From: Escherichia coli
GTDB taxonomy: Bacteria; Pseudomonadota; Gammaproteobacteria; Enterobacterales; Enterobacteriaceae
Assembly (NCBI RefSeq): GCF_024298765.1
Contig: NZ_CP101210.1
Length of the DNA: 64,000 bases
Reading direction: 5' to 3' (one strand)
Part shown: piece by piece, positions 17,267 to 36,563 of the stretch
Layout: each line of letters starts with the position of its first letter
Numbering within the stretch: the first letter of the stretch is position 1
Program-made: the position numbers and the translations under genes
The notes under the pieces: model-generated
What the model was told of the DNA's origin: nothing
Seen by the model: only the letters and a program-made list of their open reading frames with translations
Database searches by the model: none

Positions 17267-18817
17267 TTACACTGTGTTTCTTATCGGTTCAAGATATCCA
17301 AATGCATCTCTGGAAAACTTAAGCATAAAATTTTTCATATCAGAAATTGCTTCTTGTAAAAAAAGGGGATCATCGCCATGATTATCCAGCAGGATGGCAA
17401 TTTTTTCGCACATATTCTCTTTCCTCAGCTCTTCCCTGGGTTGCAGCCTTTTCATGGTATGATGTTCAATTTCTTTCAGGAGTAATGAGGCATTTATCTG
17501 ACGTCTGGTACTGCCTTGCGTCAGCCAGTGGATGGCCTGGGAAAAACACTGTTGTGCAACGGTGAAATAAACATCATTCTTGATGCTACTATTCAGTGCC
17601 TGCTTTTGATTATGCCTATGATGGATTAGCGTCACAACCAACTTTTGCAATGGTGAACCATCCTGATTGACAATATCTTGGGCATGTGATTTCTCGCAGT
17701 ATTGATTGAGTAATGCAACAAAACTGTTAACCAGTTCTTTCAATATATCAGGTATCTCTTTTTGTGTTATAAATTCTCCAGGAATACCCAACAGTTCTAG
17801 ATAACAGTAATAACATGCTTCATGAAAAGTTTTCTGAAATATCTCCTCAACCTTCAAACGGGCTGCAAGAGTGAAGTCAGGGTCAAACATATATTTTCCG
17901 ATATACAAGCAGAGATCAGACAGCCCTTGCATAAGTACCATCGGTTCTTTTGCCAGTTCAGCTAATCTTAGTTTATACCCAAAATCAGCTGGGGAATCTC
18001 CCGGAAACAGACAACTGAGTCCGCTAAAATCCATTAATCTGCCATCCATTGCAATATTAGAAGGAGAAGTTGTCAATCTCAGGAAACGTGTTCGACAAAA
18101 TGCCATTTGCCAGGCCTCACGACGTGCCAGTTCACATAACCCCTCAATGCAATAAATCCGGGGATCAGTTCGTGCTTCAGCATCAATTTCTTCCGGTGGT
18201 ACAGGTAGATATCCTGGCAGCTTGTGGATCACAGATCTAACCCGACAGGCATCGTGAATTAACAGACTGGAATACTCCGGTTTTACTTGGAAGTAAGGTG
18301 CCCGTTCAAAATGCGCCGGACGAACAACAGGCTCACGTACCAACAGGGCTCTTCGTGATTTCCTACCGGAGCGCTCAAATGCCTTTTCAGTATAGAGATC
18401 TGTAAGTAAAACCGCCCGAACCCGCACAGCACTATAAGGTAATATTTGAGCCAGTACTTCTCCCCACAAAGCCTCATATATTGCATGAACAGCGCCGAGT
18501 GCACCATTAGAATGACGTTCGTCAGTACCTTCGCCAACCAACGGATTACTTCCTATTCCTTTAACCTGGTAGTTACCATCAAACCCACAACGTGCACCAC
18601 CTCCATTACGCTGAATACCACTGCCACCATAGCGCTCTGCATGGAACACTTTGGCAGAAGCTGTACTGCCAGGATCGATAATATAACTGCAGGCATTTTG
18701 CAGCTCGTCTGGATTTCTGACATCCTCTGCACACCAGATTAATGAGGCCTTGATCTGCCTGGCAGTGAAAGGCACCAGGTTTTCATTCAGTTCAGAAAGT
18801 GAACACTGATGACTCAT
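17267..18817 (-). CDS. mchC: Microcin maturation protein MchC (MceJ-like)
   Basis: 516-aa ORF with ATG start, immediately downstream of mchB in the mchIBCDEF order. Confidence 0.8.
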   Translation of the reverse strand: MSHQCSLSELNENLVPFTARQIKASLIWCAEDVRNPDELQNACSYIIDPGSTASAKVFHAERYGGSGIQRNGGGARCGFDGNYQVKGIGSNPLVGEGTDERHSNGALGAVHAIYEALWGEVLAQILPYSAVRVRAVLLTDLYTEKAFERSGRKSRRALLVREPVVRPAHFERAPYFQVKPEYSSLLIHDACRVRSVIHKLPGYLPVPPEEIDAEARTDPRIYCIEGLCELARREAWQMAFCRTRFLRLTTSPSNIAMDGRLMDFSGLSCLFPGDSPADFGYKLRLAELAKEPMVLMQGLSDLCLYIGKYMFDPDFTLAARLKVEEIFQKTFHEACYYCYLELLGIPGEFITQKEIPDILKELVNSFVALLNQYCEKSHAQDIVNQDGSPLQKLVVTLIHHRHNQKQALNSSIKNDVYFTVAQQCFSQAIHWLTQGSTRRQINASLLLKEIEHHTMKRLQPREELRKENMCEKIAILLDNHGDDPLFLQEAISDMKNFMLKFSRDAFGYLEPIRNTV

Positions 18818-19088
18818 CTGGCAGTATTCTCCGTTTCAATTTTCATAAAAGAGTGTTCATAAAAGAGCAAGTAAGTGTCCTGACAGCTTCTTCCTTATTA
18901 CAGTAAAACTCTATTAATTACACATAAATTAAAAAATTATTTATCAACGACTGTAAATCATATCTTCATCAGTAAAGTGTTGAACATAAAAACACACTTA
19001 TAAATGGATCTTCTATCTGTTTTAAACAAAAAGGATATATTTTACAGGTACTACCGAAAAAGTGCCTGTAAAATAAATAAAAATATAA

Positions 19089-19316
19089 TTAGCTACCGCC
19101 ACCAGCAGAAGAACTGGCACTACCACTTCCCACGGTCGAGCCAATTGCTGTTGTCAAACCGGCAGATACGGCTCCAACTACAACCCCAAGTGGACCACCA
19201 GGTATTCCGGCGAGAGCTCCAACAATAGCTGCAGCACCTGCAGCATTAGCTGAAGTCGCTGGCGCACCTCCCGCCCCGGAAATATATCTTAACTGTGATT
19301 CTGTTATTTCTGGCAT
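19089..19316 (-). CDS. mchB: Microcin H47 precursor
   Basis: 75-aa ORF MPEITESQLRYISGAGGAPATSANAAGAAAIVGALAGIPGG...GSGSASSSAGGGS: double-glycine leader, Ala/Gly-rich core and Ser-rich tail matching MccH47 as I recall it (recalled residue 2 is R, here P). Confidence 0.9.
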   Translation of the reverse strand: MPEITESQLRYISGAGGAPATSANAAGAAAIVGALAGIPGGPLGVVVGAVSAGLTTAIGSTVGSGSASSSAGGGS

Positions 19317-19343
19317 ATAAACTGCATATAAACTCCATCATAT

Positions 19344-19553
19344 TTAACTTCCGTTTTTCCAGTCTGACCAGACCAGAATCCTTCGAATCCCATGAATCAG
19401 CTCAATAAAACCAAGAAATATTATAAAGCTTAGAAAAACGTCAACATAAGAATTCCCTTCGCCAACAATCCGAAGGGATGAAAGTGAAACCAATAAGATA
19501 GTAATAGGTAAACTGAATATAGCCGTCAATTGGGACAGTTTTTTATAACTCAT
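19344..19553 (-). CDS. mchI: Microcin H47 immunity protein
   Basis: 69-aa hydrophobic two-TM peptide immediately upstream of mchB; ATG start. Confidence 0.85.
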   Translation of the reverse strand: MSYKKLSQLTAIFSLPITILLVSLSSLRIVGEGNSYVDVFLSFIIFLGFIELIHGIRRILVWSDWKNGS

Positions 19554-19964
19554 TAATCCCTACCTGTTGCTTTATTTTCATTATGAAAAGTTACCAAATC
19601 TTAGCACCTCAGTCAGGAGAGTCAGGTCATCGATAAAGAATATTCCAGTAGAGTGGCGCTCATGATCAAAGATAACAGCAAAGTTGATGACAGTGCTGAC
19701 CGACTGTCATTTACAGAAACCCTGTTTGTAGCAAATTCCATCTTACCTGACCTCACCCAGACAAAGACAAAAGAGAATGATTGTTATTTACTTTTCAAAA
19801 AAAGTGTCATATTGTCCATATAAAGTCAAGAGGTATTTTACGTTATGTCACTGATGCAATTGTTAGTCAGGATCTCATGGTTGTCGCTCATGTATAACCT
19901 GAGACTTGAACGCACACTAATAGCGCTGACGGTCATACATCGGGAAATGTGAGGAGGCATAAGA

Positions 19965-20210
19965 ATGAATTGTGATAATAATCACAGAAATGAAGAATTC
20001 ATTGTTACCTTTGATAAAGGCAACAAGCAAGACAATTCAAGACGAAAACACGATAATTTTCCTATAGAGGTAGAATCCTCCGTAGAGCAGGAGACACACT
20101 GTATCACAAATAATAAGTCAGCTTCCGGTATAGTAACACATGACTATGATGCCGATTATATTTGTGGTTGTGGTGAAATTATGTGTCCTGGTTGCGGTCA
20201 TGACCTATAA
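19965..20210 (+). CDS. mchS4: Small Cys-rich protein, mchS4-like
   Basis: 81-aa ORF with strong GAGGAGG Shine-Dalgarno 8 nt upstream; C-terminal CGCGEIMCPGCGH cluster; position matches mchS4 in the H47 locus order as I recall it. Confidence 0.5.
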   Translation: MNCDNNHRNEEFIVTFDKGNKQDNSRRKHDNFPIEVESSVEQETHCITNNKSASGIVTHDYDADYICGCGEIMCPGCGHDL

Positions 20211-28899: not shown

Positions 28900-29352
28900 T
28901 TAAAGTGTTCTCAAAAGTCTGGCTGGATTACCGGCATACACGCCTTTTACCAGCACGGGCTTTGTAACCACACTACCAGCACCAATCACTGCTCCACTGC
29001 AAATTTCTGTGGTTAAAATGGTCGCTCCGCTACCCACTGTTACAGTGTTACCTAATACGATGCGTATCCAGCTTTCTGCAGAGGCATCGGGACCACCACA
29101 CTTAAAAAGATCATTAGCAAAAGTTACGCCATGACCGATGAAACAGCCATCACCTAAAATGACGTTCTCACAGATGAAACTGTGGGACTGAATTCGGCTC
29201 CGGTTGCCAATGATACATCCCTTCTGTATTTCCACAAAGGGACCGATAAAAACATCATCCCCCAGTTCACATTCATAGAGGTTTACTGGCATGACGACTT
29301 TCACATTTTCACCAAATTTCACATCACGAATGCGGCTGTCAATAACGTTCAT
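28900..29352 (-). CDS. Hexapeptide-repeat (left-handed beta-helix) acetyltransferase
   Basis: 150-aa ORF with repeated [LIV]G-x4 hexapeptide pattern (IGNRSRIQSHSFICENVILGDGCFIGHGVTF...); ATG start. Confidence 0.75.
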   Translation of the reverse strand: MNVIDSRIRDVKFGENVKVVMPVNLYECELGDDVFIGPFVEIQKGCIIGNRSRIQSHSFICENVILGDGCFIGHGVTFANDLFKCGGPDASAESWIRIVLGNTVTVGSGATILTTEICSGAVIGAGSVVTKPVLVKGVYAGNPARLLRTL

Positions 29353-29861
29353 ATCCGTTGTATCCTCCCTCAGGATGATTCTTATCAGAACATTTCACCT
29401 GTCAGAATATTCCCGGTAATGTGATACAAGAGCCAGTCTCACCGGGTACCATGTGTTATTGCTCGTATCCTTTTGCCCGTTACGAGTGTACAACCGGTTT
29501 TATATTTTGCAATCCAGGCCTGTTACACCAGAGCATCCTCTCACTGCCCCCTCACTGGTCAATCCGGGATTCAAAGTCATCCTCCAGCACTAAACCCCAT
29601 ACCAGTCCTGAACCTTCCCTCGCCAGCAGCCAGACTCCTACTGTTCACCACAATCCTCTTCCGTGAATGGCCGTAAGTGCGCAGCACCAAAATAAATCGG
29701 TACTTCCGATGACAGACAGTGAAAGCGTCAGAGAAATATGAACATGAGAATGGAAGCAGATACATGACTTCAGGACGACTTTTTCAGAAAACGAGCTAAG
29801 GGCGTCAGCCAACGACCTTACCGTGGTATACGCTCAGGCGCCGGATGCCGTTTTACCCGGT

Positions 29862-30593
29862 TCACCTGCCATCCAGCAAACGCCCCGGCCCACGACTGCA
29901 ACCATAATTACGTTGCCCGGAACCGTCATGCTGCTTCGTCTCATATTTCACGAGATAACTGGCTCTGTTCCGGGCTTTCTGCATCGCTTCCACATCACCA
30001 CGCTTGATCCAGAGAACAGCGGCTTCACCAGACTTTTTGTCTGAAGCCTTCCAGGTATCAGAACATCCACCCGACAAAGGCGTGTCATCGGAAGAAGGGC
30101 GAACATCAGACGATGCTGGTTTACGGGAAGGCGTCCACCTGGAAAAATGGACCAGGCCATCGCCTTGCCAGGGCTCAAGATGCAGGGCGCTGCACCATGC
30201 CTCCTGGATCATCGTCGCCAGCGAAGACGGTTCGCTGAAATCCCCGAGCGAGCACCAGGTATCTTTGTTGAGCAGTAATATCACGTGATAATGTTTCCTG
30301 CCATACATCTTGCCGAACTCCCGGCACCAGAAATAACCCAGGCTGGTTGCATGCACACGCTGATTGGCACATCTTTTTTTCCGCTGGTAAGCCTGAATTT
30401 TGGCTTTCAGGGATGCAAAAAAACGAGAAATCACCGCTGAATCCGGATCGGGATCCATGATGGTGACAGGCATATACTCAGGGAAACGTAAATCCACCCG
30501 GATTAACGAGACGGCACGGTGCTGCGCCAGGGCACTGTCGAGAAGGCTGTCAAAACGGGATAACCAGTAAGCATTGTGTATTGGTTGATTCAT
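29862..30593 (-). CDS. Inovirus Gp2-family (YfjJ/YagK-like) protein, paralogue 3
   Basis: 243-aa ORF, ATG start, conserved HYHVILLLNKD segment; conserved leader motif immediately upstream (30601-30648). Confidence 0.7.
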   Translation of the reverse strand: MNQPIHNAYWLSRFDSLLDSALAQHRAVSLIRVDLRFPEYMPVTIMDPDPDSAVISRFFASLKAKIQAYQRKKRCANQRVHATSLGYFWCREFGKMYGRKHYHVILLLNKDTWCSLGDFSEPSSLATMIQEAWCSALHLEPWQGDGLVHFSRWTPSRKPASSDVRPSSDDTPLSGGCSDTWKASDKKSGEAAVLWIKRGDVEAMQKARNRASYLVKYETKQHDGSGQRNYGCSRGPGRLLDGR

Positions 30594-30984
30594 GATGAGA
30601 GATCTCCGTTGATTTGGATTGACTTCACATCATTAATCAACGCAGTAAAACTTTACGGCATCCGACATTGAGCAATACTACAACTCTCTGATTAAGAGTG
30701 ATTGAAACGGAACAAACCATCCCGGAACGAAAAGATAATCCTGCACACAGCAGCAAAATACGCAACAACAGCATGAATGGATTTAAAAACGACATGGACG
30801 ACGAGAAAAGTCTGAAGGGAAAAGGAGCCACAGAACATTCGAACAAAACACCAGAAATGCAACCAGAACGCTTCCTGGCAATGCAAATCAACAACAACGC
30901 CAAAACCTACAACTTAATCACACAACTCAATCACGGATGCGAATGACACGCTTAAAACCTGTTTACAGATAACGCCGTAACACG

Positions 30985-31026
30985 ATCATCACCATCACCA
31001 TCACCATCACCATCACCATCACCATC
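30985..31026. repeat. Hexanucleotide simple-sequence repeat (ACCATC)x6 with flanking ATC
   Basis: Read directly: gatcatc(accatc)6ag; no start codon in the poly-His frame (a TAA lies immediately upstream). Confidence 0.85.
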
Positions 31027-31461
31027 AGAATCGATTTTCTCATCCCGAAAATGTTACGTTTCACTACGCACCATAAAAACGATTAACCATCGATAACGTA
31101 AATCTCATCTGAATCAAAACACCAAAACCGTTCATCACACTTTCGCAATGCAAGAAGAAACCTCATGACAAAAAGAATGACCTTACACGGAAAAGAAAAA
31201 CGTCAGGAATCGTTAATGCCTCAATCTGATTGTTATCAAAACATCCAGAAAGTCGTTTAACAGAATCGTCGTAAGCACATCGAAAAGAACGTCAGATTAC
31301 TTCAGGAAAGTTCGGGTTGATTTAGCGTAAAGATACTTTTCTCAAGCTAACGTCGAAACTCGAAATCTCAGGAAAGGTTAAACGTAACATCAGTAAAATC
31401 GAATAGCAGATTGATTGCTTAAACAGAAAGGTTTTACAGCAGCATTAAACTGATTTAGTTA

Positions 31462-31497
31462 ACGTAAAGATTTACTAAACGTAAAGATTTACTAAAC
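31462..31497. repeat. Tandem duplication of a 17-bp unit (cgtaaagatttactaaa)
   Basis: Read directly in the ORF-poor segment; about 100 bp downstream are three spaced copies of acgtgtat(a) (near 31572, 31606, 31636). Confidence 0.7.
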
Positions 31498-32593
31498 TGG
31501 ATGTGTATCAGATCAAACAATGTGTACAGCAATGCTTAATGAAAATACTTGTAGAATTGTTTATGAGAAAGCGTGTATAACACTTACTGAAATGCTTAGT
31601 TAAATACGTGTATGTTTGGTAAAACACTTAAGTAAAATACGTGTATAGTACCATTCCCGACATTCTCAACATCTTCAGACATCCATGCAGACTGAGTGTT
31701 GATTTCAGTTTTTCACGGCCAGCATGGATCTTTACTGTTTAAAAAACATACAGATTTACTCTGAAATTATTTACCCAGGCCTCCCTGAAAAGACCATCCG
31801 GAGCATCCCGTTCGTCAGCTTCCATGTTGTCTTTTACCCCGGAAAGTGATCGCATTTTCCAGCCAGAATGACAGCCATACTGATTATGACGTCTCTCCGG
31901 CCCCTTCACATATAACATTCATGTCAGTCATTTCTTACTGCCTCACTCACCGGAATTCTCCATGCCGGATGAAGCAATTGTTCTGAACTGAGCAGAAGCA
32001 TAACAGCACACAAGGAAACGACTGTGCTATAGATCCTGGAATCAGGATCTTAATGTCAGGAAAACAATGACGACCGGGGATAACCAACAACAACCTGAGT
32101 ACAGAAGAAAGCTTTCCCGCGCACGCCATCATCTTATGTAAGAGGATATGATGCCACCCCCACCTCAGAAGAACCGTCTCCGGGAGAACTTCACTGCATC
32201 CAAAATCCTTTTGCTGAGTTCTCATTCCCCATCATGGCAGCTACAGACATGCCCTGACAGAGCGTATGCGCATTGAGAGAAATAACCATAAATGATGAGA
32301 AGACACTCTATATAACGACAGCATGTTGAGGCATCAAAAATATTCATATAAATATTTTAAGAAAATTTTTTATTGCAAACTACAGGAAATAACATGATGT
32401 CAATATAATTTTTTAAAAAACGTGATATTAATCACATTGTAATTTTCTGTGTTTTTATGTAAATCAGAGAAAAGAGTCCATGAACGTTATTGCATTTTTT
32501 CTGATGTATGGATAAAAGGGGATTCAGGCGAAATTTACTGACAGAGGTGATAAGAGGGGGGTTAAAGAGTTCTATAGAGTTGGTTGTGCATTT

Positions 32594-33463
32594 ATGCCCA
32601 GGGAGTTCATGTCTGTGCATTCACCAGATGAATCTGATCATGTTTTTAGTCGGATGGAATATGAATATTACCGACATAACGATAAATCACCTTCTGTTAA
32701 TGCTGATAATGCAGGCAGAGACGTTGTTCCGGAGTGGGTGCAAAAAGACCCTGTAGCCGCATTCTGGGTATGGATGTTTATATATCATGTTCCTGACAGT
32801 ATTGTCCGACTCTCAGGTGAGCAATATGCAGATTACGGAATTTCCTGTCTGTATGCCAGACTGTTTGCCACAGAAGCAGCTCCAGCTAATCATCAGGCAA
32901 GGATTCGTGTGACGAGAAAATGGCTACAGGAGCTTATAAGGCTAACCGGGACAGAAAATGTATCTGACTTCTTGTATGTCGTTCATTTTTTATGGTCATA
33001 TGCTGAAAAAGTGAACCCCATGACATGGCTTGGTTCCCGGCGGATACATATCAAATGGGCATGGGCGTATCTGCAAAAACATTGCACTGACGAAGAACGT
33101 CACTGTCCTGATATTTCAGAATTTAAAGCTTCAGGGGAGTCACGTCTGTTCATAATAGCTTATGTGCGCCGTGTCTTCATGAAAATCTATTCTGTCGGTA
33201 CTGAACCTCAAAAGTTAAAAGAATTAGTTTATCAGCAGAATGATTTTCTCAGGCGCATGAAGTGCTCATACCAGAAAATGTTCCGGTATGAGAAAACCGA
33301 TTCCCGGGTACAGATAAGTGCCCTGATTTCTCCGGAAGCCAGGAATGCACTCCGGAAAATGGCAAAAAAGAATAATCTGACGCAGGCTGAAATCCTGGAT
33401 AAACTCATCTTATCAGCTGATCGTCTGTTTATGCAGAAAACAGCAGGGGATTATTCCCGTTAA
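32594..33463 (+). CDS. Uncharacterised protein with C-terminal ribbon-helix-helix-like segment
   Basis: 289-aa ORF with ATG start; C-terminal VQISALISPEARNALRKMAKKNNLTQAEILDKLIL fits a beta-strand/helix/helix (CopG/Arc-like) pattern; no other family recognised. Confidence 0.5.
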   Translation: MPREFMSVHSPDESDHVFSRMEYEYYRHNDKSPSVNADNAGRDVVPEWVQKDPVAAFWVWMFIYHVPDSIVRLSGEQYADYGISCLYARLFATEAAPANHQARIRVTRKWLQELIRLTGTENVSDFLYVVHFLWSYAEKVNPMTWLGSRRIHIKWAWAYLQKHCTDEERHCPDISEFKASGESRLFIIAYVRRVFMKIYSVGTEPQKLKELVYQQNDFLRRMKCSYQKMFRYEKTDSRVQISALISPEARNALRKMAKKNNLTQAEILDKLILSADRLFMQKTAGDYSR

Positions 33464-34449
33464 TGAGTTCCACCAGAACCGTTTTTCTTTTTGCTGCTGT
33501 TTTTGCGTTTATGCTGTTCGTACCTTTCTTTTGACGTACAAAGGAATCTTCCATAAACATTGCGGATATATGAGTTGATATACTCCAGCATTCTCTCTTT
33601 TCGTGATTTCCCTTTTTCCTTCGAATCTTCACTTTGAACATTAATGTCCATCAGTTCTTTTATAAACTTATCCAGATTTTCCATGTCATAAAGCAGCATG
33701 AAAAACATCACATTTCCCAGTGATTCCAGTAACTGAGATTCAACCCAGTCCCCATATTTTCTGAAACTTAGCCCTGTTAAAAACTGTTCAAACATTACCC
33801 CTGATACAAAAAGAGATTTTAATCCCAGTCGCTTATATTCCTGGTAAAAAAGTTCAAACGTCGGGGATTCTGAACGGCAAATAAACGAAGACAGCGCCCA
33901 TGGATCAAAATCTGTAACACGCCTCCCCTCCCACACTTCCTGCCGTGTCAGCGGCGGTTCAGCAAACCAGGCGTCCAGCTCAGCCGAATCGCTGTCCCTG
34001 CTCAAAACCTTATACAAACTGCCCGTGAACGGTTGAGGCGGATTTTTGGTTGCTTCATCTTCTGATTGTCTGGATTGTCTGGATTGTCTGGATTGTCTGG
34101 ATTGTCTGAATCCGTCCACTTTTCTCCGGATATTACGCGGGATCAGCATAAAAGGCGGGACATTAAGTGATAAACGTTTACCCGTCATGCGATACCATTG
34201 CCCCACCTCAACCTTAATCCGTGTATCTGACTTTAGCTCAAGTGCCATTATGTTAAGCAGGTACAGATAACGCACCGTATAACAGTCAAAATGTTTCTCC
34301 GGATCAAACGGCTCTGACCGTTCTCTGCACACGAGTCCGCTGCGCTTCAGTATTCGCTGGGTATCTTTCCAGGCCTTACACTGAAGAATGGTGGTAACTC
34401 TGGCCTTATTAGCAATCTCACGCAGCGCATCACTTTGTTGTGCCGTCAT
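33460..34449 (-). CDS. Uncharacterised protein with internal (RQS)5 repeat
   Basis: 329-aa ORF, ATG start preceded by GGGAGGTGAG Shine-Dalgarno; contains an in-frame 9-bp tandem repeat (34062-34106); stop overlaps the stop of the convergent 32594 gene (TTAA). Confidence 0.55.
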   Translation of the reverse strand: MTAQQSDALREIANKARVTTILQCKAWKDTQRILKRSGLVCRERSEPFDPEKHFDCYTVRYLYLLNIMALELKSDTRIKVEVGQWYRMTGKRLSLNVPPFMLIPRNIRRKVDGFRQSRQSRQSRQSRQSEDEATKNPPQPFTGSLYKVLSRDSDSAELDAWFAEPPLTRQEVWEGRRVTDFDPWALSSFICRSESPTFELFYQEYKRLGLKSLFVSGVMFEQFLTGLSFRKYGDWVESQLLESLGNVMFFMLLYDMENLDKFIKELMDINVQSEDSKEKGKSRKERMLEYINSYIRNVYGRFLCTSKERYEQHKRKNSSKKKNGSGGTH

Positions 34450-34554
34450 CTCACCTCCCGCACTCTGTCACTCCAGATTTTTTCACGTCCATATTACCTG
34501 AATGATAAGCCGGATTAGTGTGATCCGGTTCAGCGAAATCAACAGGATAACGGT

Positions 34555-35439
34555 ATGTCATTCAGCCATTCTTCCCTCTCCGCACAAGTGAAATCACATC
34601 TGACGTTTCTTCCTGAAGAAATTCGCCAGAAAATCCTTGAACATCTCCACAGTGTTATTCATTACGAGCCCGTGATTGGCATTATGGGTAAATCCGGAAC
34701 AGGCAAAAGCAGTCTGTGTAATGCCATTTTTCAGTCCCGTATCTGCGCCACACATCCTCTGAACGGCTGCACCCGCCAGGCTCATCGTCTTACCCTGCAG
34801 TTCGGTGAACGCAGAATGACGCTGGTCGATCTGCCCGGCATTGGTGAAACACCGCAGCATGATCAGGAATACCGGACACTTTATCGTCAGCTGCTACCGG
34901 AACTGGATCTGATTATCTGGATCCTGCGGGCTGATGAACGTGCGTATGCTGCTGATATTGCCATGCATCAGTTTTTACTGAATGAAGGCGCAGATCCCTC
35001 GCGTTTTCTGTTTGTTCTCAGCCATGCCGATCGCGTGTTTCCTGCTGAAGAATGGAATGCCACAGAAAAATGCCCGTCCCGTCAGCAGTCGCTCTCACTG
35101 GCGACGGTGACAGCCCGGGTGGCAACCCTGTTCCCTTCATCATTTCCGGTACTCTCCGTTGCTGCACCTGTCGGCTGGAACCTTCCGGCGTTTGTGTCGC
35201 TGATGATCCACGCACTGCCACCACAGGCAACCAGCGCGGTGTATTCACATATCCGGGGAGAAAACCGCTCTGAACAGGCCCGGAAACACGCACAACAGAC
35301 TTTTGGTGAAACCATCGGGAAAAGTTTTGACGACGCCGTTGCCCGTTTCAGTTTTCCGGCCTGGATGTTACAGCTTCTGCGCAAAACCCGGGACCGCATT
35401 ATCCACCTGCTGGTCACACTGTGGGATCACCTGTTCTGA
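34555..35439 (+). CDS. YeeP/YkfA/YfjP-family GTPase
   Basis: 294-aa ORF with P-loop GKSGTGKSSLCNAIF and DLPGIGE (G3) motifs; position typical of CP4-44/CP4-57-like elements. Confidence 0.8.
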   Translation: MSFSHSSLSAQVKSHLTFLPEEIRQKILEHLHSVIHYEPVIGIMGKSGTGKSSLCNAIFQSRICATHPLNGCTRQAHRLTLQFGERRMTLVDLPGIGETPQHDQEYRTLYRQLLPELDLIIWILRADERAYAADIAMHQFLLNEGADPSRFLFVLSHADRVFPAEEWNATEKCPSRQQSLSLATVTARVATLFPSSFPVLSVAAPVGWNLPAFVSLMIHALPPQATSAVYSHIRGENRSEQARKHAQQTFGETIGKSFDDAVARFSFPAWMLQLLRKTRDRIIHLLVTLWDHLF

Positions 35440-35557
35440 ACGCCCCGGAGTCCCCCGTGGCAACCGTATACCTTTACACGACAACGGATTACGGTAACCA
35501 CTGCCGTATACCGTCTGTCATTATCAATAACACGCTCTTTAATTTCAGAGGTCAGTC

Positions 35558-36235
35558 ATGAATACCAGAATTCTTTTTCCCCTGCTGTTCACTGTGGCAT
35601 CATTCTCCGCCTCCGCCGGCAACTGGGCTGTCAAAAACGGCTGGTGTCAGACCATGACGGAAGATGGTCAGGCGCTGGTAATGCTGAAAAATGGCACGAT
35701 TGGTATTACCGGCCTGATGCAGGGATGCCCGAATGGTGTACAGACGCTCCTGGGCAGCCGTATCAGTATTAACGGTAACCTGATCCCCACATCACAAATG
35801 TGTAATCAGCAGACGGGATTCAGGGCTGTTGAGGTGGAAATCGGACAGGCGCCGGAAATGGTCAAAAAAGCCGTTCACTCCATAGCAGAGCGTGATGTGT
35901 CCGTTTTACAGGCATTTGGTGTACGAATGGAATTCACCCGCGGTGATATGCTGAAGGTCTGTCCGAAATTTGTCACATCACTTGCCGGTTTTTCCCCGAA
36001 ACAGACGACCACTATTAATAAAGATTCCGTCCTGCAGGCTGCCCGGCAGGCATACGCCCGGGAATATGACGAGGAAACAACAGAAACCGCTGATTTTGGC
36101 TCTTACGAAGTAAAAGGCAATAAGGTTGAGTTTGAAGTATTCAATCCTGAAGACCGTGCGTACGACAAAGTGACCGTCACGGTTGGTGCTGACGGTAATG
36201 CCACCGGCGCCAGCGTTGAATTTATCGGAAAATAG
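35558..36235 (+). CDS. Secreted/periplasmic hypothetical protein
   Basis: 225-aa ORF with cleavable signal peptide [20 protein letters not shown]; ATG start. Confidence 0.6.
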
Positions 36236-36240
36236 CCGGT

Positions 36241-36474
36241 ATGTCGGACTGCCACCCTGTTTTATTGCCCGAAGGCCCTTTCTCACGCGAACAGGCGGTT
36301 GCCGTCACAACAGCTTACCGCAATGTGCTTATTGAGGATGACCAGGGAACGCATTTCCGGCTGGTTATCCGCAATGCCGAAGGGCAGCTACGCTGGCGGT
36401 GCTGGAATTTTGAACCTGATGCCGGAAAACAGCTAAATTCGTATCTCGCCAGTGAGGGAATTCTCAGGCAATAA
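36241..36474 (+). CDS. DUF905-like small protein (YkfF/YpjJ-like)
   Basis: 77-aa ORF; [55 protein letters not shown] resembles the YkfF family as recalled. Confidence 0.5.
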
Positions 36475-36563
36475 ACGTCTTCATTTCATCCATCAGGCCG
36501 CGTCTTCTCCGGGAGACGCGGCCTTTTCGTTTATACCGCTAATTCATTCATAAGGAGCAAAGT

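Follow-up and report, generated by a model that had tools for sequence, protein, structure and literature searches.

An allelic two-gene cassette beside the GTPase operon of integrative islands in Escherichia coli, a candidate control or identity module

Introduction

Two convergent, uncharacterised genes, here called A and B, lie immediately upstream of the GTPase gene of an integrative island in Escherichia coli. Both are contained in a stretch of 64,000 nucleotides from contig NZ_CP101210.1 of NCBI RefSeq assembly GCF_024298765.1, which we refer to as the window; positions given below are those of the window unless another locus is named. An earlier note, made from the sequence alone, had described the pair as cargo in a variable slot of the island. 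Here, we define the two uncharacterised protein families to which A and B belong, together with their motifs and allele types. What is new is a deeply allelic, island-confined cassette beside the GTPase operon, whose parts are a ribbon-helix-helix (RHH)/MatP-like candidate binder and an orphan family.

The A and B genes

Gene A is located on the forward strand at 32609..33463 (284 aa), the coding sequence to which the NCBI Prokaryotic Genome Annotation Pipeline (PGAP) assigns WP_021527174.1 in E. coli ACN002. The chromosome of that strain carries a 100% identical stretch, in which both genes are labelled 'hypothetical protein' and the start of A matches 32609. Gene B, on the reverse strand at 33460..34449, encodes 329 aa (allele type B1, WP_021573508.1). 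The earlier note had given both genes real ATG starts. For B this stands, and the open reading frame has the strong Shine-Dalgarno sequence claimed for it: GGGAGGTGAG, the reverse complement of 34450-34459, lies directly before the ATG at 34449-34447. For A the start is probably another one. The note had used the ATG at 32594, which gives 289 aa, and a GTG at 32615 is also possible. Because PGAP and most homologues begin at 32609 (MSVHSPDE), and some at the residue matching the GTG at 32615 (MHSPDE), the start at 32594 probably lies 5-7 codons upstream of the true one, and A probably comprises 282-284 aa.

The stop codons of the two genes overlap in the TTAA at 33460..33463, as the note had read it, and this overlap leaves no room for a terminator between them; a promoter and terminator scan, otherwise uninformative, found no terminator-like site there. 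The same 4-nt overlap is present in CFT073, MRY15-117 and FDAARGOS_1262, and in other genera the spacing between the two genes ranges from -26 to +121 nt.

The (RQS)5 repeat that had been pointed out within B is a perfect, in-frame array of 5.0 copies of the 9-bp unit GATTGTCTG at 34064..34108 on the reverse strand (Tandem Repeats Finder score 90, 100% matches), situated in a linker that is modelled with low confidence (predicted local distance difference test, pLDDT, of 27-29). The repeat is there, but its copy number is polymorphic. It varies from 1 to 6 among alleles, with protein alleles carrying 1, 2 or 5 copies, and near-identical DNA matches have lengths of 2174, 2183, 2192, 2201 and 2210, i.e. 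they differ in steps of 9 bp.

A homologues occur in E. coli and in at least eight other genera, and the B family forms 66 clusters in E. coli. Both genes are intact as open reading frames of similar length in at least five genera and in hundreds of genomes, with a ratio of nonsynonymous to synonymous substitution rates (dN/dS) of 0.37-0.64. A and B are real genes, and well formed, as had been claimed. We consider it very improbable that they are decaying remnants without present function. Parts of the island have decayed (its CbtA and DUF4942 genes are frameshifted, and it contains a fragment of an integrase gene), and the constraint on A and B is relaxed relative to that on the GTPase; against decay, however, stand the intact reading frames just described, a dN/dS below 1 and the motifs of both families, which are kept down to 20% identity.

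Relationship to known families

The earlier note had assigned neither protein to a described family, and this is borne out. The remote-homology searches and the comparison with defence-system catalogues that it had suggested yield no clear homology for B and sub-threshold RHH and MatP matches for A. PADLOC-DB v2 contains no match for A, B1, five distant members of the B family, three distant members of the A family, or the alleles B2 and B3 described below. Pfam, searched with single proteins and with every member of the family alignments, has no match for B and, for A, only RHH_1 matches that stay below threshold, while NCBIfam and PHROGs return nothing above threshold for either protein. Sequence and profile searches of the PDB give nothing for B, and Foldseek, run with the B model, recovers only members of the B family in AFDB50 and has no hit in the PDB.

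Comparison of A with B found no relationship between them, and a relationship of A or B to K-12 YfjH was rejected after a negative comparison. An Rfam scan of 29000-36500 produced one chance-level hit. In the literature on yfjP/yeeP/ykfA and the island gene set, we found no functional study of either family.

Domain architecture of A

In the numbering of the 284-aa protein, A consists largely of two helical repeats followed by a C-terminal RHH-like segment, all encoded on the forward strand. Repeat 1 covers residues 30-135 (32696..33013; motif PEWV..AAFWVW), repeat 2 covers residues 136-232 (33014..33304; motif MTWL..IKWAWAYLQK .. FLRRMK.SYQK) and the RHH-like segment, RVQISALISPEARNALRKMAKKNNLTQAEILDKLILSA, covers residues 233-270 (33305..33418). 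Across the A family, hhalign aligns residues 30-135 with residues 136-232 (probability 93.7%, E 1.8e-7, 77 columns), which is evidence of an internal duplication into two tandem, Trp-rich helical repeats. The family alignment contains the motif F/W-x-W-I/L...W-x-W-x-Y-L...P..E(R)..AI...D...F-I/L..(R)MK..(A)W/Y in two copies.

The pattern of the C-terminus, RVQISALIS-PEARNALRKMAKK-NNLT-QAEILDKLIL, fits an RHH of 38 residues (strand, helix, turn N-L-T, helix). The RHH-like ending had been proposed in the earlier note, and it receives weak-to-moderate support from NCBIfam, PHROGs, CopG and the PDB. The last 40 residues match the NCBIfam RepA model (PRK13702) at E 3e-4, with 20.7 bits vs a cut-off of 87; the segment matches a PHROG Arc-like family below threshold (E 5e-3) and CopG by hhalign (E 2.9e-4, probability 41%); and the best member of the A family matches Pfam RHH_1 (PF01402) at a sub-threshold E of 1.4e-3. 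A also weakly matches the IncL/M RepC model, and PF10723 (RepB-RCR_reg) is precomputed on A homologues, some alleles of which PGAP calls 'replication regulatory RepB family protein'. Against the PDB, the A profile finds RHH-type chains at E 0.02-0.6, including SvtR (2kel) and MatP (4d8j), as well as 2k1o and 1x93, which we take to be RHH-type proteins. In the AlphaFold2 (AF2) model of A, the RHH segment is the only part that reaches a pLDDT of 60-70, yet a helix is modelled there instead of a strand. From its sequence features, we infer that A is probably a sequence-specific DNA-binding protein.

Small RHH regulators (CopG/Arc, CopB/RepA2 of IncFII, PF10723) are proteins of 45-90 aa that consist of the RHH only. 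Their likeness to A lies in its C-terminal 38 residues. A differs from them in having about 230 extra N-terminal residues, in matching them under the curated cut-offs and in having no RepA-type replication initiator adjacent to it.

A second likeness extends further into the protein. About 120 residues of A, namely repeat 2 and the RHH segment, align with MatP (PDB 4d8j/3vea) in one register that is reached by three weak routes and covers MatP residues 9/12-131, a region that we take to be a four-helix bundle plus RHH. The routes are the A profile against the PDB (E 0.088), the NCBIfam MatP model (NF003471) against a Hafnia member of the A family (E 0.01; 16 bits, where the cut-off is 165) and an hhalign comparison with three MatP sequences (E 2e-5 to 4e-4, probability 35-54%). 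W-W-YL-K of A is placed on GWKWKYLVKKH of MatP, FLxRMK..xxQK on LVNRMKQTIRARRK, and RHH on RHH. MatP has a C-terminal coiled coil, and no part of A aligns with the C-terminal region of MatP. A has an extra, upstream copy of the helical repeat; its gene is hypervariable and belongs to an island, whereas that for MatP is chromosomal and conserved. A matS-like palindrome was not found. The resemblance to MatP is confined to the DNA-binding domain, and we treat it as a lead rather than as membership of the MatP family.

The B family and its alleles

Members of the B family share the motifs AWxNTQRxLKRSG, VRxLYxL, PxxIRRKVDxF, GSLY, PTFxLFxxExxRLG and LGxxLFFxxLY. Searching 1.8 billion representative proteins with a B profile hidden Markov model (HMM) gave 48 hits, about 17 of which are full-length distant clusters; these come from Citrobacter, Hafnia, Serratia, Lelliottia and one 'Acinetobacter sp.' metagenome-assembled genome. 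B is an orphan, all-helical family that is largely confined to Enterobacterales.

In three islands without B1, the position of B is held by a gene for a 'hypothetical protein' of 407 or 376 aa, divergent from the GTPase gene. Both proteins are remote homologues of B, and we call them B2 (407 aa; locus L068, 5752-6975, reverse strand) and B3 (376 aa; loci L069 and L070, 5762-6892, reverse strand). B2 aligns with the B profile by hhalign with a probability of 95.3% (E 2.3e-8, 181 columns), while B3 has the motifs of the B family and an E of 2e-13 against the B HMM. Both carry an N-terminal extension of about 100 residues with the pattern C-x4-C-x16/17-C-x2-H. This extension looks like a zinc-binding domain, and it has no match in Pfam, NCBIfam, PHROG or the PDB. 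No A-like open reading frame was found near B2 or B3, even at an E-value of 1 with filters off.

Hypervariability and block exchange

Protein identity between the window and CFT073 is 96% for Gp2, 98% for the GTPase, 98% for a 225-aa protein, 96% for DUF905, 90% for DUF932 and 97% for JAB; for A it is 27% and for B 53%. The GTPase has a dN/dS of 0.13-0.17, compared with 0.37-0.56 in A and 0.40-0.64 in B, and its dS is much lower as well. The two genes look like old alleles that have been exchanged by recombination and are held under weaker or diversifying constraint.

Breakpoints of blastn alignments outline the exchanged block. Relative to B2 and B3 islands, a swapped, non-alignable cassette of 2.7 kb extends over 31773..34478 and consists of about 840 bp upstream of A, followed by A and B; in islands without B1, homology to the window begins at 34479/34480. 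Relative to A2/B1 islands (CFT073 and MRY15-117), the non-alignable block is 31941-33647. One Serratia genome contains two islands whose GTPases are 84% identical and whose A-like proteins are 18% identical, and across the loci listed in the scan of sister islands reported below, A-like identity hardly tracks GTPase identity (Spearman coefficient 0.22).

Distribution and gene order

A census was carried out on 5426 complete E. coli genomes. A type 1 is present in 195 of them, A type 2 (CFT073-like) in 561 and B1 in 741; because the counts for A (195 + 561) are so close to that for B1, they indicate that A and B1 travel together. The 5' region of the GTPase gene (34455-34760) was found at 2499 places in 1868 of the genomes. 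At 2402 of these places (96%) a B-family gene lies beside it in divergent orientation, the allele being B1 at 820 places, B2 at 1068 and B3 at 514. Among the E. coli islands with B1, B2 or B3, A was found beside B1 only. An A2-type island and a B3 island are found together in E. coli EC11. Outside chromosomes, the A and B families are absent from 50,697 phage records and occur in 2 of 72,556 plasmids, of which the one examined (pNDM5_LS003) holds an island fragment.

Gene order is kept across strains and genera. In CFT073, MRY15-117 and FDAARGOS_1262, a homologue of A (27-28% identical in the first two, with E 2e-30 and 8e-27, and 59% identical in the third) is convergent with a homologue of B, and the GTPase gene is divergent. 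Citrobacter amalonaticus, Serratia, Lelliottia and Hafnia have the order AlpA/Gp2, A-like, B-like (convergent) and GTPase (divergent), and after the GTPase come DUF932, Antirestrict, RadC, DUF987 and CbeA/CbtA. The pair occupies a fixed position in the backbone of CP4-44/CP4-6/CP4-57-like islands for this GTPase lineage only; K-12 CP4-57 and most YfjP-type loci are without A and B.

Since a B-family gene is nearly universal beside the GTPase, the order is kept, and both families are absent or rare in phages and plasmids, the pair fits a very fast-diverging backbone module rather than a mobile defence cassette. The description of the pair as variable cargo in the earlier note has to be given up in view of the 2402 of 2499 GTPase places with a B-family gene and of the A-B-GTPase order in four other genera. 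A reading of the pair as pure cargo is likewise rejected on its 96% association with the GTPase lineage.

Spacer, leader and upstream non-coding region

B and the GTPase gene are separated by a divergent spacer of 105 bp (34450..34554), which was aligned across five genera. It contains the conserved motif TTTTCACGTCCATATTACCT (34480..34499, forward strand) at the right edge of the swapped cassette, and CATATTACCT (34490-34499) is invariant in the five genera. The TTTTCACGTCCATATTACCT motif is present in 8/8 B1-bearing loci and absent from the same place in 56/56 other GTPase loci (K-12 yfjP and those of the scan). Because the motif is the same whatever the cassette allele and lies on the GTPase side of the cassette boundary, CATATTACCT belongs to the promoter or leader of the GTPase gene and is not allele-specific. 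The only further copy of CATATTACC in the window is a chance match inside cadB. In a Hafnia locus (L008), two CATATTACC copies occur 39 nt apart.

The GTPase leader also contains a stem-loop, CCGGAT-TAGTGTG-ATCCGG (34510..34528, forward strand), that shows covariation. In the alignment 93.8% of cells are paired and 4/6 pairs show compensatory changes; none of 500 shuffles scores as high, and pairing in the slid controls is 4-60%.

Between Gp2 and the cassette lies a region of about 1.2 kb without an annotated gene (30600-31772). It is AT-rich (33-39% GC) and is 74-89% conserved between E. coli islands, whichever cassette they carry. It contains iteron-like direct repeats, 2.7 copies of the 17-bp unit GATTTACTAAACGTAAA at 31452-31497 with a further copy at 31317-31334, and more direct-repeat pairs at 31525/31585, 31575/31619 and 31598/31631. 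The region may be an origin or an array of binding sites. A perfect hexanucleotide repeat, (CATCAC) x6.8, is located in the same non-coding stretch at 30987-31027.

These repeats bear on an explanation in terms of maintenance or replication control. A would act like CopB/RepA2 or MatP and bind the iteron-like AT-rich region by Gp2, with B as its partner; with Gp2 as a rolling-circle Rep-like protein, the genes would control replication, segregation or transfer of the excised island. The explanation is encouraged by the conserved repeat region, by the best RHH matches of A, which are plasmid replication regulators (RepA PRK13702, IncL/M RepC, PF10723), by the MatP-like register and by the overlapping convergent transcription of A and B, which offers antisense control. 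However, the repeat region stays conserved where A alleles share 27% identity or A is missing, which suits a binder that is itself conserved, such as Gp2, better than it suits A, and the regulator matches are far below their cut-offs (20.7 vs 87 bits and 16 vs 165 bits). No documented replication of these islands was found in the literature searched. We regard replication control as decidedly unlikely, both as the general role of the pair and in this specific form.

The same interval in sister islands

A GTPase-anchored scan with one genome per species returned at least 57 loci, mostly YfjP-type, and the results in this section refer to the 57 loci listed. In at least 17 of them, the gene directly before the GTPase gene, on the same strand, encodes a full-length A-like protein of 284-401 aa, and B is absent; these loci belong to Yersinia, Hafnia, Kluyvera, Erwinia, Serratia, Providencia, Enterobacter and Cedecea. 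In A-bearing loci no large open reading frame lies between Gp2 and A, and in A-less loci the genes adjoining the GTPase are unrelated to A.

That A-like genes occur without B is one of the points that count against a toxin-antitoxin or addiction pair, in which B would be the toxin and A an RHH antitoxin-repressor. RHH domains are common in antitoxins, so that the RHH of A would suit this role; A and B are tightly linked and co-varying, and the island already carries CbeA/CbtA. The genes are, however, convergent and not co-transcribed, at 284 and 329 aa the proteins are large, and the RHH stands at the C-terminus after 230 residues. B2 or B3 is found in about 1400 genomes without an A-like partner, and no toxin family was matched. 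Given the orientation of the genes, the size of the proteins and the fact that A-like and B-like genes also occur independently of each other, we largely reject a type II toxin-antitoxin system, and we leave an addiction pair of any kind only a very small chance.

Defence genes are frequent in the A-less loci. They include PtuA (Septu), a type I methyltransferase, GajB (Gabija), LmuA-like, PDC-S71 and ZorA-like genes, a CBASS cyclase with E1-E2, TmtA, PDC-M27C and a type III methyltransferase. The defence-bearing loci are L024, L025, L028, L034, L038, L042, L043, L047, L053 and L056, and the genes lie 0.2-5 kb upstream of the GTPase gene, which starts at about 6001 in these loci (about 4583 in L034). 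The corresponding slot of CP4-57 in K-12 carries AbpAB (YfjKL), YfjM and RnlAB. In CP4-57-type islands, then, the slot does carry variable cargo, as the earlier note had it, with AbpAB/RnlAB in K-12 and defence genes in sister islands. The cargo between yfjJ and yfjP of CP4-57 occupies the same kind of interval as our pair, from Gp2/YfjJ to the GTPase. It differs in having no sequence relationship to A or B and in being portable in many contexts, whereas A and B are restricted to this backbone. ORFs 42-45 of the Shigella SRL island, compared by position only, also lie directly upstream of a YfjP/YeeP-like gene (orf46); they were described as having 'no similarity' and were still hypothetical in 2020 (PMC6980539).

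Some further loci have large genes next to the GTPase gene without a PADLOC hit, encoding 866 aa (L018), 821 aa (L023), 830 aa (L035) and 1204 aa (L039). These could be new defence genes.

With such neighbours, it is natural to ask whether A and B are themselves part of an undescribed anti-phage or inter-element exclusion system. The B-family protein would be the specificity or sensor component, recognising phages or rival islands; it would be helped by A in B1 islands and by the Cys/His domain in B2 and B3, and the LeoBC-like GTPase would be the switch or effector. If this were true, a defence locus would have gone unrecognised in about a third of E. coli genomes. Known defence genes fill the equivalent slot of sister islands, the pair and defence cargo are mutually exclusive in the YfjP-type slot, and the deep allelic diversity of A and B, with their raised dN/dS relative to the GTPase, is in keeping with such a role. 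Furthermore, the C-terminal part of the GTPase (residues 182-285) matches positions 460-549 of 601 of PADLOC LeoBC, a component of Eleos, at E 2.3e-7 (for LeoBC see PMC4159319, and for Eleos bioRxiv 10.1101/2022.12.12.520048). The likeness to Eleos (LeoA + LeoBC) is limited to the neighbouring GTPase; the window's island has no LeoA-like gene, A and B are without a match, and we do not class the island as Eleos. Other evidence points away from defence. PADLOC has no hit for A, B1, B2, B3 or their distant members, no enzymatic or effector domain is recognisable in A or B, and, in contrast to typical defence cassettes, neither family occurs outside this island backbone. The presence of the B family at 96% of GTPase-lineage loci in E. 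coli also marks it as backbone, not payload. We judge an exclusion or immunity function of the pair, and of the three-part system just outlined, to be possible, if unlikely.

Island context

Upstream of A and B, the island contains microcin H47 genes, IS2, two Gp2/YfjJ-family genes and an acyltransferase gene. Downstream run the genes for the GTPase, a 225-aa secreted protein, DUF905, DUF932, antirestriction, JAB/RadC, DUF987, YeeU/CbtA and DUF4942 and an integrase fragment, and the island adjoins cadCBA. The GTPase gene (34555..35439, forward strand) is the first gene of the downstream operon and encodes 294 aa with an MMR_HSR1-type G domain that resembles those of Era/Der-type GTPases. Directly after it, at 35558-36235, comes the gene for the 225-aa protein, which has a signal-peptide-like N-terminus and is 98% identical in CFT073 and 63% identical in Lelliottia; neither PADLOC nor NCBIfam has a family for it.

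The microcin H47 genes mchB, mchI and mchS3 lie upstream of the two Gp2 genes, at about 17400-20000 (locus L001, 354-2065). Frameshifts affect the CbtA, DUF4942 and antitoxin genes of the island, and a fragment of an integrase gene is located beside cadC. In FDAARGOS_1262, an island of the same type has genes for a 'dynamin family protein' and a hypothetical protein upstream of Gp2 (locus L004, 585-3829), a pair that may be Eleos-like cargo.

Proposed role of the cassette

The reading that we put forward starts from the finding that A and B, together with about 0.65-0.85 kb upstream of A, form a hypervariable cassette at a fixed place in the backbone of a family of Enterobacterales integrative islands, whose order is Gp2/YfjJ, the cassette and then GTPase-DUF905-DUF932-KlcA-RadC-DUF987-CbeA/CbtA. 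A would work with B1, and in B2 and B3 the fused Cys/His N-terminal domain would replace A. The cassette proteins may bind cassette-specific sites and so set the expression of the cassette and of the GTPase-led operon, which would place an antirestriction gene, a RadC-like gene and the CbtA toxin gene under their control. Allelic divergence could then keep sister islands in one cell from cross-regulating. The cassette would, in short, be the island's own allele-specific transcriptional control or identity module, a role that we find plausible, though short of probable. In its favour are the fixed position of the triad in several genera, the B1, B2 and B3 alleles at nearly all GTPase places in E. 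coli, the pairing of A with B1 only, the RHH and MatP likeness of A with its duplicated repeat, the hypervariability and block exchange, the A-like genes directly before the GTPase gene in YfjP-type islands, and the restriction of both families to these islands. DNA binding, the partnership of A with B, the regulated target and the orthogonality of alleles are the components that we infer.

Several observations weigh against this proposal. The RHH matches of A are many and concordant, but each is weak and all fall under the family thresholds; similarly, A does not reach the 165 bits required by NF003471, and all of its MatP matches are sub-threshold. No DNA-binding domain is recognisable in B, and the AF2 models, built from shallow alignments, are poor, with pLDDT values of 45.5 and 39.2. 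No operator for A or B was identified, and the sole strongly conserved site in the spacer, being identical across cassette alleles, cannot be the allele-specific site. Where defence genes fill the slot, an A-like gene is always missing, so the downstream operon can exist without A. Finally, fast divergence and deep alleles would also be expected of a gene in an arms race.

Significance

The islands are present in 1868/5426 complete E. coli genomes (about a third), often in several copies, and they carry virulence, microcin and defence cargo. The interval between Gp2/YfjJ and the GTPase in YfjP-type islands is a rich defence hotspot and is useful for finding new defence genes. In the GTPase lineage studied here, the cassette is a concrete and testable candidate for the control or identity module of islands that possess a well-conserved GTPase-KlcA-RadC-CbtA operon.

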